From a virus (lineage: Duplodnaviria > Caudoviricetes), in the IMG/VR virus record IMGVR_UViG_3300005326_000127, positions 1 to 24,261 of that record: a stretch of 24,261 nt of DNA. The stretch is one strand, 5' to 3'. The position numbers and the translations under genes are program-made. The notes beneath the pieces are model-generated. The model made no database searches, was not told the DNA's origin, and saw nothing but the letters and a program-made list of their open reading frames with translations. Every line of letters starts with the position of its first letter. Position 1 is the first letter of the stretch. Shown one piece after another: positions 4,652-24,257 of the stretch.

Positions 4652-5188
4652 TTACGTTTTCAGCCCAAGGTGATCGCCAGCCACCTCCAGTATCCGGTCA
4701 CGGTCCTGCCGCGAGATCCCCAGGAATGGCCGAGCCGGGATCTCGGAGCCGGGGTGATTCACCGCTCTGGCCGGGTGTCTTGCCCCTGGCCAGGCCAGGG
4801 CCTTCTTGTTTTTCGGCCTGATCACATGCGGCTTTGTCTTGCCACCGAACTGATGGATCGCGCTGTATATCCGGTTGGTGCCGATCCGTACTCCGCCCTC
4901 GTTGGCCTGGTACCGGATCGAGTCCGAAAGATATCCGCGCTGCCGCAAGATCTTGTCGCTATGGCCACGCAGAGCCTTACTGGCAATCGTGGAAGCCTTG
5001 AGCCGCTGCCAAGGGCGACCGTCCGGATCGGTCTGACTGCTGAATCGATCCTGGGTGGAGCGCAGCAGCACCTCGCCGATGTTCTTCATGGCCGGAGCCA
5101 TCCTGCCAGCCTTAGCATGCAGGCGATCAAGAGCCTTGACGATCTCGCGATCGTCGATCTTGCTTATAAGGGTGAAGGCTCCGGCCAT
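4652..5188 (-). CDS. Virion morphogenesis protein (Mu gpG-like)
   Basis: IGEVL..ST..RF....DPDG.PW..L, IGTNRIYSAIHQFGG and IPARPFLGIS motifs. Confidence 0.9.
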   Translation of the reverse strand: MAGAFTLISKIDDREIVKALDRLHAKAGRMAPAMKNIGEVLLRSTQDRFSSQTDPDGRPWQRLKASTIASKALRGHSDKILRQRGYLSDSIRYQANEGGVRIGTNRIYSAIHQFGGKTKPHVIRPKNKKALAWPGARHPARAVNHPGSEIPARPFLGISRQDRDRILEVAGDHLGLKT

Positions 5189-5217
5189 TTGACAATCCCG
5201 ATCAATTGAGCTATTTT
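5189..5217 (+). promoter_or_regulatory. Sigma70-type promoter firing antisense to the late operon
   Basis: TTGACA (5189-5194), 17-bp spacer, TATTTT (5212-5217). Confidence 0.7.
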
Positions 5218-5222
5218 ATGTG

Positions 5223-5298
5223 AACGATGGTTCCGGTTGGGCCGCAGTCCCGATAACCGGCACCTAGCGCCAAGGTTTCTGCGGAAGCCTTACGGCCC
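5223..5298 (+). ncRNA. Candidate structured ncRNA: two hairpins with a 6-bp kissing-loop interaction
   Basis: Hairpin 1: GGT/ACC, CCGGTT/AACCGG and GGG/CCC with loop CCGCAG (5242-5247). Hairpin 2: AAGGTTT/AAGCCTT with loop CTGCGG (5279-5284). The loops are exact reverse complements, and a U-G pair works only on the + strand. Ends approximate. Confidence 0.65.
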
Positions 5299-6615
5299 CA
5301 CCTCTTCTCTTCCCCACAACAACTTCCCGTTCCGCTGCTTATTGACGTAGTCGAGTTTCGTGGTCGGTACCATTGTCCACGCCTCAAGCATCCCGTTGTT
5401 CGCCTGGGCCGTCACCAGCAAGGCCCTCGTCTTATCCAGTTGCACCAGCTTGACCAGCCGCTGCCGCAGCACCACCTTGCCGGTGCCTTTGTGCTGCTCA
5501 AAGGAGAGCCACGTCTCATAGGGATCTTCCAGTACCTCCGGCAACAACGGCAGGTACGGAGTGCGCTCAAGATCAACATGGCTGGCCAGGCTCTCGGCGT
5601 TCACCAGCATCTTGCCTCCGGATGGCAGCGTGTAGATCCGCTCCTCGCCGCCCATGATTCCGGTCAAGGCCTTGGCCGCCGCCTGGGTCGTGGTGAGCTT
5701 GGGGCCGAGGGCTGCGCGGGGGCTGTCTGCCGGGATACGCTCCTTGCGGCCATGGCTCTGCCAATCCCCAGGGCCCATGATTCCGGTCAAGGCCTTGGCC
5801 GCCGCCTGGGTCGTGGTGAGCTTGGGGCCGAGGGCTGCGCGGGGGCTGTCTGCCGGGATACGCTCCTTGCGGCCATGGCTCTGCCAATCCCCAGGGGTCA
5901 ATCTCTCCCAGGCCTTTGCCCCCTGCGCCCGCCACTCATTCATGCTTGCTTCCGACAGTTTCTTCCCCCAGGCCGCTTCGCCCACGTTGTAATCCCAGCC
6001 TTTGTCGATGCCCACCGGCGCTCCGGTTTTCGGATCGATGACAATGGGCGGGGCCTGGTCCGGCCCGCTCTTGCCAAGGCGCTCCATATCGCGGCCGGAG
6101 ATGGCCTCCACCGAGCACTTGCAACCCCAGCCATTGGGCGGATAGTGGCTGGACCAGAAGCCATCGTCATGCGCCAGCACCAGCCCGTGCCAGGCCAGAT
6201 GCTGCGGCCGGGGCCGTTGGCTGTCGCCATGGCGATACCGCCAGTAAGGCTGATAAGCCAAAACGTCCGGATCGGTCATCTGCTTATAGCGTCCGGCCAT
6301 GTACGAGGTACGCAGGTTGGTATCGTAGATCACCCGCGTGCGCCAACCTCGGCCGCCGTTGTAGCTCCAACCATACCGGCTCACGATCTGGTCGAAGTCC
6401 TTGCGGAACGCCTCCAGGGTGGTGCCCTGTTCGATGGCTTTGCGCAGCGCTCCCTGAAAGTCGCAAAGCATGTCGTCCCGCTGCGCCCCGGCGATCATAA
6501 AGCCCCTGGCGTGCTGGCCCTTCTTCAGGTCATCCCAATGCCGCGTGGGAATGCGGACCTTGTCGCGGAAGAACTTCTCCGCTTCCTCAAAGGGCAGACT
6601 GCCGTACTCAACCAT
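5290..6615 (-). CDS. MuF (gpF) minor head protein with C-terminal PBECR2-like nuclease domain
   Basis: MuF motifs RVIYDTNLRTSYMAGR, RPQH.AWHG and YPPNGWGCKC; C-terminus R.PYLPLL...LEDPYE.W...LRQR...WT.....YVNKQRNGKLLWGR resembles PBECR2 (BECR-fold) by eye. Confidence 0.85.
   Translation of the reverse strand: MVEYGSLPFEEAEKFFRDKVRIPTRHWDDLKKGQHARGFMIAGAQRDDMLCDFQGALRKAIEQGTTLEAFRKDFDQIVSRYGWSYNGGRGWRTRVIYDTNLRTSYMAGRYKQMTDPDVLAYQPYWRYRHGDSQRPRPQHLAWHGLVLAHDDGFWSSHYPPNGWGCKCSVEAISGRDMERLGKSGPDQAPPIVIDPKTGAPVGIDKGWDYNVGEAAWGKKLSEASMNEWRAQGAKAWERLTPGDWQSHGRKERIPADSPRAALGPKLTTTQAAAKALTGIMGPGDWQSHGRKERIPADSPRAALGPKLTTTQAAAKALTGIMGGEERIYTLPSGGKMLVNAESLASHVDLERTPYLPLLPEVLEDPYETWLSFEQHKGTGKVVLRQRLVKLVQLDKTRALLVTAQANNGMLEAWTMVPTTKLDYVNKQRNGKLLWGREEVGP
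5650..5895. repeat. Perfect tandem duplication, 2 x 123 bp (41 codons, in frame) within muF
   Basis: 5650-5772 is identical to 5773-5895; protein repeat PGDWQSHGRKERIPADSPRAALGPKLTTTQAAAKALTGIMG. Confidence 0.95.
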
Positions 6616-8074
6616 TGCCGCCCACCTCGTCGAGCACTTCGGCCCGGCCGGTCAGATCGGCCTGGAACAATCTGTTGCCCAGGGCCTCGCCGGTAGCGGC
6701 CAGCGGAATGCGGTCATAGATATCGAGCAGCTTTGCCTCGGCCTCTTCCAGGCTGCCGACCTCGGCCAGCAGCCGGTACACCTGATCCACCATGCCGGAG
6801 CCGTCTGCATCGGCCAGGGTCTGGTCGGCGAGCAGATCCACGGCATCCGGAGCAGCCTCGGCAAACTGCGCAGAAGGCTGGCCGATGGTTACTGACGGCT
6901 TGGAGTTGGTCGCTGGCAGCTTCTTCGTCCATTTACCGCCGTAGGTGTCGTTGATGTACTGCTCGTCCGGTTCAAAACCCATCTCGCCCAGATTCTTATC
7001 CACCTCGGAGCGGGTCTTGAGATCCTCTCCCTCGGCGAAATCGCGCCATACTTTAGGCGGGTTGGCATTGGGTAGATTCAGCTCCACGATCCAGCGGACA
7101 ATGGTCTCGTTGATGGTGTCGGAGAGCAGGTCGGAGTCGCCCTTGGCCAGCTCCAGCCGCACCTCGTTATGGGTCTTAGCCGCTGCCTGACTGCCGACTT
7201 GGCCGACATTGGTGGAAAGCGTTTCCCCCAGCACGCATTCGCTGATCTGCTCGTCCATGTAGCGGGCAAGCCGTTCATAGGTGTCGATGGAGCCTGAGCG
7301 GGCCGCTTCCAAGAACTTGACCATCATGCCCTGTGGCACGATGATCCCTGCCTCGGAGGCGATGGCCGACAGCGAGGCCAGCAGTTTTTTCTGGTCGGCA
7401 TCGCTTGTGCCGGACGGGTATTCGCCTATGGCCGTGGGGCTTGCAAACTTGTCCACGAAGGTGAGCCAGAAGGTGATGTCCTGCCGCTTGAAAAAGACCG
7501 GCCAGAAGAGCTTGTGCCCGAGGCCCAGACCGTAAGGGTTGTCATCATCCTTCTCGCCGTAGCGGTGGACGATGAATTTTCTCGGCGGCAGCGGCTCGCC
7601 GGTAAGCAGGTTGGTCTGAGTAAGCAGGCGCGGCTCCTGTTCCTCATCAAACACAAAGCGCCGTTGCGGTTTCACTTTGATGCGCCGCGCTACGATCTCC
7701 GCGCCATCAGTCTCCCAGATAATTTCGCCGACGCTGTACCCCTTGAGAGTGGCATCCAACAGCTTCTGGCACACCTGGTCGAACCTGAGATTGCTCAACT
7801 GCTTCTGCACCAACGCAGCCGCTTTTTTATCCAGGGCACTATCCGAGGCGGGCAGCACCTGCCACTCGCGGGCGATGATGGCCAGCTTGCGTTTCTGAAG
7901 TACGGCAAAGGCATGGCAATCCCGCTCAATCTCGTCATAGATCTTGAGCCCTTTGCCGCCACCTCTAGAGATCAGGGTGTCATCCTGATTGCGCAACACG
8001 CCACCGAAGGTGACGACCATCGGGTCTTTGCCGATTGTGGCGATCTCATTTCTCAGGTCTTTTTCAATCGCCAT
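6608..8074 (-). CDS. Portal protein (Mu gp29, DUF935)
   Basis: 488 aa; LQKRKLAI..REW, LLDATLKGYSVGEIIW, NPYGLGL..L.WP..FK and ISECVLGETL motifs; follows terminase. Confidence 0.92.
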   Translation of the reverse strand: MAIEKDLRNEIATIGKDPMVVTFGGVLRNQDDTLISRGGGKGLKIYDEIERDCHAFAVLQKRKLAIIAREWQVLPASDSALDKKAAALVQKQLSNLRFDQVCQKLLDATLKGYSVGEIIWETDGAEIVARRIKVKPQRRFVFDEEQEPRLLTQTNLLTGEPLPPRKFIVHRYGEKDDDNPYGLGLGHKLFWPVFFKRQDITFWLTFVDKFASPTAIGEYPSGTSDADQKKLLASLSAIASEAGIIVPQGMMVKFLEAARSGSIDTYERLARYMDEQISECVLGETLSTNVGQVGSQAAAKTHNEVRLELAKGDSDLLSDTINETIVRWIVELNLPNANPPKVWRDFAEGEDLKTRSEVDKNLGEMGFEPDEQYINDTYGGKWTKKLPATNSKPSVTIGQPSAQFAEAAPDAVDLLADQTLADADGSGMVDQVYRLLAEVGSLEEAEAKLLDIYDRIPLAATGEALGNRLFQADLTGRAEVLDEVGGNG

Positions 8075-14993: not shown

Positions 14994-15003
14994 TTCTATC
15001 CTT

Positions 15004-15066
15004 TGGCTGCATCATCAGACCCAGGGAGCCGCCCCTGGATGACCGGGTCGAAGCCCGGTTTCGCAT
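15004..15066 (-). ncRNA. Type II hammerhead ribozyme
   Basis: Minus strand UGC-GAAA-CCGGG(CUUCGA)CCCGG-UC/-AUCCAGGG(GCGGCU)CCCUGGGU-CUGAUGA-U-GCA-GCC: complete core, stems I and III closed, loop I GGCU pairs with 3' AGCC. Confidence 0.9.
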
Positions 15067-15067
15067 A

Positions 15068-15355
15068 TTAGAGCCCGACACCATCGATACACCGGGGGAT
15101 CTCATCGCCGACCGTATCCGGGACACGAGTCTCAACCATCCGTTGATACAGCTCGACACGCTCAATCAGGAGCCCAACACTTTCGATGTGCTCGGGGTTC
15201 GCCCCGTACCGAACACACTCCTCACGGTATGCTTTCAGCGCAGCAGGCACCGCCTTGTCCTTTGCGCAAAACACCATGGCGGTTTCTTCGGTGTAGATTT
15301 TCCCTGTTACAGGGTTTACGGCCAACAATTTAAACTTCCGGTCAATTACGTTCAT
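15068..15355 (-). CDS. Hypothetical phage protein
   Basis: 95 aa; VFCAKDKAVPAALKAY motif; GAGG/TAAGG RBS. Confidence 0.8.
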   Translation of the reverse strand: MNVIDRKFKLLAVNPVTGKIYTEETAMVFCAKDKAVPAALKAYREECVRYGANPEHIESVGLLIERVELYQRMVETRVPDTVGDEIPRCIDGVGL

Positions 15356-23884: not shown

Positions 23885-24052
23885 TTTTCTTAGATCATTT
23901 GCAAAAAGCACATAAAATTATGGACTGACCGGCCAATTTTCTTAACATGGAAATCGCGCCGAAAAATATTTTCTCATCATCCGAAGGTCCGCATAAAGTC
24001 TAGCAAAAGTCTCATTCAAGTCTCATCGAATCCAGCAATATCAATTTTCTTA
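23885..24052. repeat. Sub-terminal repeats, likely transposase-binding sites
   Basis: TTTTCTTA at 23885, 23937 and 24045; TTTTCTCA at 23969; AGTCTCAT at 24008 and 24019. Confidence 0.5.
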
Positions 24053-24099
24053 TTCTTCATGCCCCCCTATAATTATCTTATTCTTCATGCCCCCCTATA
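24043..24099. repeat. Tandem 28-bp repeat at the putative prophage end
   Basis: AATT(T/A)TCTTATTCTTCATGCCCCCCTAT twice; the 24-bp core is identical at 24048-24071 and 24076-24099. Confidence 0.9.

Positions 24100-24182: not shown

Positions 24183-24257
<75 letters not shown>

Follow-up and report, generated by a model that had tools for sequence, protein, structure and literature searches.

The stretch of DNA analysed in this work (the window) comprises the 24,261 nucleotides at positions 1 to 24,261 of the IMG/VR virus record IMGVR_UViG_3300005326_000127. Profile searches revealed transposase, repressor, portal, capsid and sheath genes and identified the record as that of a Mu-like temperate phage, its temperate character being indicated by the Mu transposase and repressor genes. 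We focused on the muF gene, whose product ends in a PBECR2 domain (a predicted RNase), and on a predicted non-coding RNA (ncRNA) that lies on the opposite strand, immediately past the muF gene, and reaches into its last codons. The features of this locus are as follows:

5189..5217, + strand: sigma70-type promoter-like site TTGACA-17-TATTTT (boxes at 5189-5194 and 5212-5217; predicted start at about 5223-5225)
5224..5298, + strand: predicted ncRNA of about 75 nt, with inferred ends (bulged hairpin P1, short linker, hairpin P2, loop-loop helix)
5229..5264, + strand: hairpin P1 (lower stem, 3-nt GAU bulge, GGG/CCC closing stem, loop L1 CCGCAGU at 5242-5248)
5269..5296, + strand: hairpin P2 (loop L2 CUGCGG at 5279-5284; the 3' arm overlaps the stop codon and last codons of muF)
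5290-6615, - strand: muF minor head protein gene (Phage_Mu_F at residues 53-169 plus the C-terminal PBECR2; directly after the portal gene)
5314..5655, - strand: C-terminal PBECR2 domain of MuF, a predicted RNase (the predicted catalytic residues are His346 and Thr414)

A first-pass annotation, made from the sequence alone, had proposed that muF ends in a BECR-type nuclease-like domain. Pfam confirmed this: PBECR2 (PF18810) matched MuF residues 321-434 (E 1.9e-22, 80.2 bits vs. a curated cut-off of 27.1) and was the only family found in the C-terminal domain. Among 53 aligned homologues His346 was invariant and Thr414 was at least 90% conserved. The His/Thr arrangement of the window MuF is that of active PBECRs as given in the accessible part of Iyer et al. 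2017 (PMC5512222), where the RNase activity of PBECR2 is a prediction. The AlphaFold model of the domain was confident (pLDDT 90.5) and placed H346 within helix H18-24 and T414 within strand E87-96. Its top fold matches were CdiA-CT (7m5f; Z 5.4, rmsd 3.9, 84 aligned residues) and the colicin D tRNase (5znm; Z 5.2, rmsd 3.3, 82 aligned), both weaker than the level at which the tool is reliable, and a sequence search of the PDB with the domain profile returned nothing meaningful (best E 1.5).

In the window, a gene of a temperate phage's head module joins a MuF domain to a variable C-terminal domain, which is the composition of a MuF polymorphic toxin. A small putative immunity open reading frame (ORF) follows 89.4% of MuF toxin genes, according to the available part of Jamet et al. 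2017 (PMC5576092). None was found downstream of this muF: the gap to the next gene, gpG, measures 101 bp (muF stop at 5290, gpG start at 5188) and contains no co-oriented ORF of at least 25 aa past the stop, in agreement with the annotated gap of about 100 bp lacking an immunity gene.

The kissing-loop element and its homologues

The annotated + strand site TTGACA-17-TATTTT is present at 5189-5217, and it is the sole promoter-like site across 4800-6200 (shuffle mean 0.3). Two hairpins follow, each exposing in its loop one of two exactly complementary sequences, CCGCAG (5242-5247) and CTGCGG (5279-5284). The 3' arm of the second overlaps the muF stop codon, so that the predicted RNA does reach it, as had been described. 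The single-sequence fold of the element was within chance (z -1.42, 17 of 200 shuffles equally good); because the lone window sequence folds no better than chance, the significance of the fold was drawn from homologues. A repeat search of the window found no tandem repeat at the element.

We fetched 399 loci which, with the window, gave 279 non-identical loci having at least 250 nt past the muF stop: 196 with PBECR2, 62 with another PBECR-like tail (some of them with weak PBECR1/2/3 matches), 17 with a short MuF and four with other tails. Duplicates, open-ended ORFs and loci close to contig ends were left out, and the set is a sample of best matches (the best 80 loci in each of four scans, 78 in another). 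Estimates of the gpG start based on hidden Markov models were noisy at PBECR2 loci and were left unused for presence calls. A descriptor requiring two hairpins with at least five loop-loop pairs matched the strand opposite muF at 118/196 PBECR2 loci, compared to 26/196 on the muF strand and 26/588 shuffles; at controls it matched 1/17 short-MuF and 1/62 other-PBECR loci.

A covariance model (R1) was then built from 65 descriptor-positive seeds, with the loop-loop helix left out of the model. The window element, itself a seed member, scored 73 bits. Run on two sets of 100 sources each, the model returned 75 hits in one and 66 in the other, which correspond to 135/196 PBECR2 loci (65 of them seeds), and the count reached about 179/196 once weaker detectors were added. 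All model hits lie on the strand opposite muF, with L213 as the sole exception. Nothing was hit at the 17 short-MuF loci, from which the element had been expected to be missing, nor at the 62 other-PBECR and the four other-tail loci; the one hit among 87 control sources (L385) proved to be a PBECR2 locus. Moreover, two model matches were found in 151 sampled whole genomes, both adjoining PBECR2.

The predicted loop-loop covariation was observed at all six pairs. In the 66-row model-fitted alignment, which includes the seeds, these pairs were 93% paired, each with double-sided changes, compared to 36-48% in slid controls. RNAalifold on the 65 seeds chose the loop-loop helix alone, a result that is circular because the seeds were picked for loop pairing. 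Among the non-seed hits alone (74 hits with 48 unique loop pairs, 4/141 hits having been dropped for loop length), 30 of the 48 pairs make at least 6 bp vs. 7% of mismatched L1/L2 combinations. Overall, there were 58 distinct L1 hexamers. In the model-fitted alignment the P1 helices were 89-97% paired, and P2 just 66%, because of register variation. By these comparisons of sequences, the element is a conserved RNA family whose shape is kept while its sequence varies. The covariation fits pairing within one molecule and pairing between copies alike.

The annotated + strand reading was borne out by the homologues. Stem pairs were G-U in 278 cases vs. A-C in 137, which points to the strand opposite muF, and the promoter consensus lies on the same strand: sigma70 scores of at least 8/12 were found in 88 of the 132 upstream regions of homologues, compared to 6 when the reverse strand was scored and 13.8 in shuffles. 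The -10 box clusters 5-10 nt ahead of the model start, and TAnnnT was present at the expected place in 115/132 regions (10/132 at the control place).

Nothing in Rfam 15 reached its gathering threshold at 5189-5300, and at the homologous loci (sets of 11 and 12, E<=1) no family attained its gathering score. Weak matches to RT-15, mir-5985 and CPEB3 in homologous loci were dismissed, being far under the gathering scores. With its variable loops and without an invariant core, the element is unlikely to belong to a known ribozyme class.

The pair also occurs in isolated phages that can be grown on laboratory hosts. By eye, and outside the model, the same layout was recognised in Thermus phage Riverbug, which grows on T. 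thermophilus HB8 (TTGCAC-17-TAGAAT, compensated loops CCTGGG/TCCAGG), and in Meiothermus phage MMP17 (compensated loops CCCGGG/TCCGGG); Lsp-JY19 also shows it by eye. In Riverbug (L405, 2803-2898) the region of the predicted RNA is also annotated, on the complementary strand, as part of a 31-aa 'hypothetical protein'; this call may be spurious. A divergent form of the element is found in RcWaterboi, RR1-B, RcapMu and EBPR siphovirus 4. The loci L407, L409, L410, L411 and L078 belong to a divergent PBECR2-like clade that has its own kissing-loop variant (e.g. GGUGAU/AUCACC), and in the members of this clade that were read (RcWaterboi, RR1-B and L078) the catalytic His is missing. The element of RcapMu and EBPR siphovirus 4 is of this variant too.

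Nuclease state, extra copies and inversion

The catalytic His was kept at all 135 model-positive loci. The element was present at 162/189 loci with an intact catalytic signature (135 model-positive plus 27 relaxed-descriptor loci) vs. 0/7 without it (Fisher 2.7e-6, under a rule for 'intact' set post hoc, in which Thr-to-Ser counts as decayed, and with no account of relatedness). At 17 further intact loci the unfiltered model output contained weak hits in or close to the expected position. At four loci (L009, L050, L325 and L331) gpG abuts the muF stop and the domain is substituted or deleted at otherwise fixed positions. Two of the seven non-intact loci call for caution: L078 is from the clade without His that keeps the kissing element, and L381 has another architecture. 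In a tree of the MuF N-domain (255 sequences, FastTree, many deep nodes weak) the decayed RNA-less loci are on separate branches, and short MuF, PBECR2 with its RNA and other PBECR with other RNA interleave. RNA similarity at 67 thinned loci gave partial rho values of 0.28 with the nuclease, 0.27 with the MuF N-domain and 0.06 with gpG, which is equally adjacent.

Some loci carry more than one copy. L088 and L167 each have a proximal RNA of their own type and a distal RNA of the other's type, and their nucleases are 30% identical. The distal RNA of L167 is 85% identical to the proximal RNA of L088, and the distal RNA of L088 is nearest to RNAs of nucleases that are about 30% identical to its own, including that of L167. 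In L088 a near-duplicate stretch containing TTGACT lies upstream of each of the two RNA units, and in L167 a single promoter-like site lies ahead of both. Extra RNA copies beside apparent C-terminal remnants were found in L204 and L374. In L213 the RNA is inverted and has a promoter-like site upstream. These extra-copy and inversion patterns, few in number, may be read from the sequences as signs of action in trans. A search for distant copies in whole records, which covered L324 with five loci that were unresolved or had no RNA, and L088 with four virus records, returned only one, beside another PBECR2 prophage, and its blanks are no proof of absence because it missed the known copy in the L324 genome.

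A candidate RNA immunity factor

We consider, with moderate confidence, that the RNA is a trans-acting antitoxin, i.e. an RNA immunity factor for the virion-borne MuF RNase. Host sigma70 would transcribe it independently of the late operon, in the lysogen included. MuF-PBECR2 would have RNase activity and would be carried by the virion into the next cell; we infer its packaging and its toxicity on delivery from what the accessible part of PMC5576092 gives for the family. The RNA, shaped by the L1-L2 helix, would be recognised by its shape and would block (or decoy) PBECR2. In this way it would protect the cell that makes the phage while the late genes are expressed, and the lysogen when particles with the same nuclease type arrive. 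Nuclease and RNA would form a swappable toxin-immunity cassette at the MuF C-terminus. The element occupies the slot of the usual MuF immunity ORF, which was counted for RNA immunity. Its loss with nuclease decay, its extra heterologous copies and its inversion are, as sequence patterns, those expected of an immunity factor. An inhibitor role would explain the spare heterologous copies, which a cofactor role does not easily do, and we take these orphan copies to resemble the orphan immunity genes of polymorphic toxins. The annotated role as antitoxin or partner of the nuclease is partly supported: the comparative tests, the decay-linked loss, the extra copies and the inversion speak for it, and the missing RcapMu variant considered below does not.

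Known systems resemble this pair in part. MuF polymorphic toxins are likewise encoded among the head genes of temperate phages, join a MuF N-domain to a variable, toxin-like C-terminus, exchange C-terminal cassettes and have a partner immediately downstream (available part of PMC5576092); here, by contrast, the slot holds an opposite-strand structured RNA with a promoter-like site and not a small co-oriented ORF. Type III toxin-antitoxin systems comprise ToxIN, CptIN and TenpIN (PMC8860590 and PMC12283969, in the parts available). In these systems a pseudoknot-type RNA inhibits an endoribonuclease directly, as is proposed here. However, the putative toxin here forms part of a virion protein and is a domain of predicted BECR fold, not a member of the ToxN/CptN/TenpN family, the element uses a two-hairpin loop-loop helix, and the RNA is usually single-copy, downstream and convergent, whereas type III antitoxins are tandem-repeat arrays placed ahead of the toxin within one operon. 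The skipping-rope and drum motifs associated with DUF3800 are a comparable case of several dissimilar structured RNAs that each accompany a single protein family and may lie in either direction (accessible part of Weinberg et al. 2017, PMC5737381), but the protein family is another one and their Rfam models gave no match here.

No description of a MuF-PBECR/RNA pairing was found in the literature searched, as far as its sources were accessible; the motif could be present as an unannotated candidate in the supplements of Weinberg 2017 and of Fremin 2023. The literature search for PBECR2 by name turned up Iyer 2017 (PMC5512222) alone, which in its accessible part makes no mention of an RNA partner or immunity factor of PBECR, and the accessible text of a 2026 BECR preprint (10.64898/2026.08.28.747851) has 0 occurrences of 'non-coding' or 'ncRNA'. 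Three Phage_Mu_F rows in the available part of Fremin 2023, with the gene within 25 bp downstream of the candidate, have a different geometry. The group of RNA motifs tied to MuF-PBECR nucleases is real and apparently undescribed.

The RNA might instead be a required partner of PBECR2 (a cofactor, scaffold or processing substrate) in an active ribonucleoprotein, possibly co-packaged. The joint presence and joint loss of the RNA and the catalytic residues fit this equally well, as does the fact that each PBECR clade has its own RNA, but heterologous copies without their nuclease (L088, L167 and L374) would be of no obvious use, no free variable guide segment is left since the variable loops pair mutually, and the promoter, of host type, points the opposite way to the late operon; we regard such a partner as unlikely. 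A type I-like silencer, acting by antisense or transcription interference on leaky muF/gpG expression in the lysogen, appears quite improbable. The RNA has full complementarity to the mRNA between muF and gpG and around the muF stop, its promoter overlies the gpG ribosome-binding region, and a silencer would likewise be required only next to an active nuclease. However, a silencer would not be expected to select for L1-L2 pairing inside one RNA, the distal heterologous copies share only 51-62% identity with the proximal copy, the RNA overlaps the end of muF and not its start, and the L213 inversion also speaks against silencing.

The pRNA of phage phi29, a packaging RNA that forms a ring via its loops, is likewise a phage-encoded RNA with two complementary loops. 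If the present RNA were a structural or packaging RNA of this kind, in a ring of L1 paired to the next L2 near the portal where MuF sits, the intermolecular pairing would give the same covariation as an intramolecular one; muF follows the portal gene, and SPP1 gp7 binds the portal (accessible part of PMC5576092). The element here, unlike pRNA, is dispensable for short-MuF relatives and tied to the nuclease domain: its presence follows the nuclease state, and packaging does not need it, because close short-MuF relatives lack the element altogether. We give this explanation very little credit, and just as little to the idea that the RNA serves as a decoy for a defence nuclease of the host or of a rival, with the adjacency to muF as a historical linkage. 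Phage RNA mimics of type III antitoxins do exist (PMC3475682, in its available part), but distinct RNAs go with distinct PBECR clades and repeated loss tracks the decay of the neighbouring domain.

Several points weigh against RNA immunity itself. We infer the transcription of the element, the RNase activity of PBECR2 and its neutralisation by the RNA from sequence; the RNase assignment is only predicted, and the fold matches of the model (Z 5.4 and 5.2) are weak. No clear terminator was found in the window 3' of the predicted RNA. The RcapMu variant of the element was missing among the 422 putative small RNAs (sRNAs) of the lysogen R. capsulatus SB1003, as checked with six 8-10-mers against Table S1 of PMC5546546, whose automated call set may miss stable GC-rich RNAs; this gives no help to the step of expression in the lysogen. 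The link to nuclease state depends on the post hoc rule and on Fisher tests that treat related loci as independent, and the relaxed descriptor also fires on 27/196 shuffles. Ten intact-looking loci had no detected element (L018, L024, L028, L029, L134, L160, L205, L218, L238 and L389), the descriptor hit at L373 looks false, and the divergent clade still carries the kissing element without the His. The model scores Riverbug at 18.8 and MMP17 at 14.7 bits, near background. Domain-specific co-evolution is not separable, because the RNA tracks the MuF N-domain and the nuclease alike.

To our knowledge, known RNA antitoxins guard toxins internal to the cell. The polymorphic-toxin immunity factors described so far in the available parts of the papers cited here are proteins. 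If the RNA is an immunity factor, RNA immunity for a phage-particle nuclease would join polymorphic-toxin immunity and RNA antitoxins, the many MuF-PBECR genes without an immunity ORF would be explained, and the poorly understood MuF would gain a directly testable role in competition among phages and lysogens. The elements also provide new compact RNA folds that may inhibit BECR RNases, and RcapMu, which carries the variant, offers a second isolated phage with a laboratory host besides Riverbug.

Other PBECR clades and neighbouring features

A second PBECR clade has a different conserved element in the same place, with covarying helices and an invariant GAUGAG, which we take to be K-turn-like. 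This second RNA-like family (L048, L049, L051, L058, L061, L072 and L244-L293) lies past the muF stop on the opposite strand and is multi-helix, with apparent short loop-loop pairing; those members tested gave no Rfam match. In this clade a motif test detected an element at 46/50 loci with the His motif vs. 3/12 without it, and in the alignment those three do have the His. A third element type (CGGUGA...UCCCGGCCGU) lies beside another PBECR-like subclade (L064, L080, L295, L298, L311 and L314), and L082, L316 and L318 seem to have still other structured elements. We give an even chance to the wider proposal that there are at least three RNA families, that each clade of virion-delivered PBECR RNase in temperate Mu-like phages has its own kissing-loop antitoxin made in the lysogen from a host-type promoter, that the cassettes are swapped at the MuF C-terminus and that in some phages heterologous RNAs serve as multi-immunity arrays against rival phages.

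Other arrangements were noted at single loci or small groups. An extra shared motif resembling GGGGYUGGCAUCCCG was found in L169, L171, L375 (upstream of the kissing-loop RNA) and L393; it sits between the promoter region and the RNA and is possibly a further tandem RNA unit. In L373 (4250-4805) a small toxin-antitoxin-like ORF pair (ParD/ParE-like by eye) is inserted directly past muF, and in L007 (2908-3230) a similar opposite-strand insertion displaces the RNA by ~480 nt. The long MuF tail of L054 and L059 has a DRAT-like ADP-ribosyltransferase domain and is followed by an apparent opposite-strand coding sequence. PBECR2 also terminates proteins of about 900-930 aa (P0083, P0093, P0159, P0161, P0178 and P0186).

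The remaining features around muF in the window are:

4652..5188, - strand: gpG-like virion morphogenesis gene (Pfam Phage_tail_S, E 6e-39; directly next to its start codon is the -35 box of the promoter on the other strand)
5650-5896: exact, in-frame, 123-bp tandem duplication within muF
6608..8074, - strand: Mu-type portal gene (Portal_Mu, E 1e-119)

The 123-bp duplication is not part of the first-pass annotation. The nearest muF homologues lack it and are 41 aa shorter (400 aa vs. 441 aa here); it is possibly an assembly artefact, because these nearest relatives have 400 and not 441 aa. Near the end of the record (24187-24257, - strand, and 24043-24099), a tRNA match lies next to a repeat of 28 bp in two copies. 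In the early region of the window phage, a Type II hammerhead ribozyme (RF02276, 64 bits, E 2e-11) was identified at 15001-15066 (- strand), directly after the ORF at 15068-15355.

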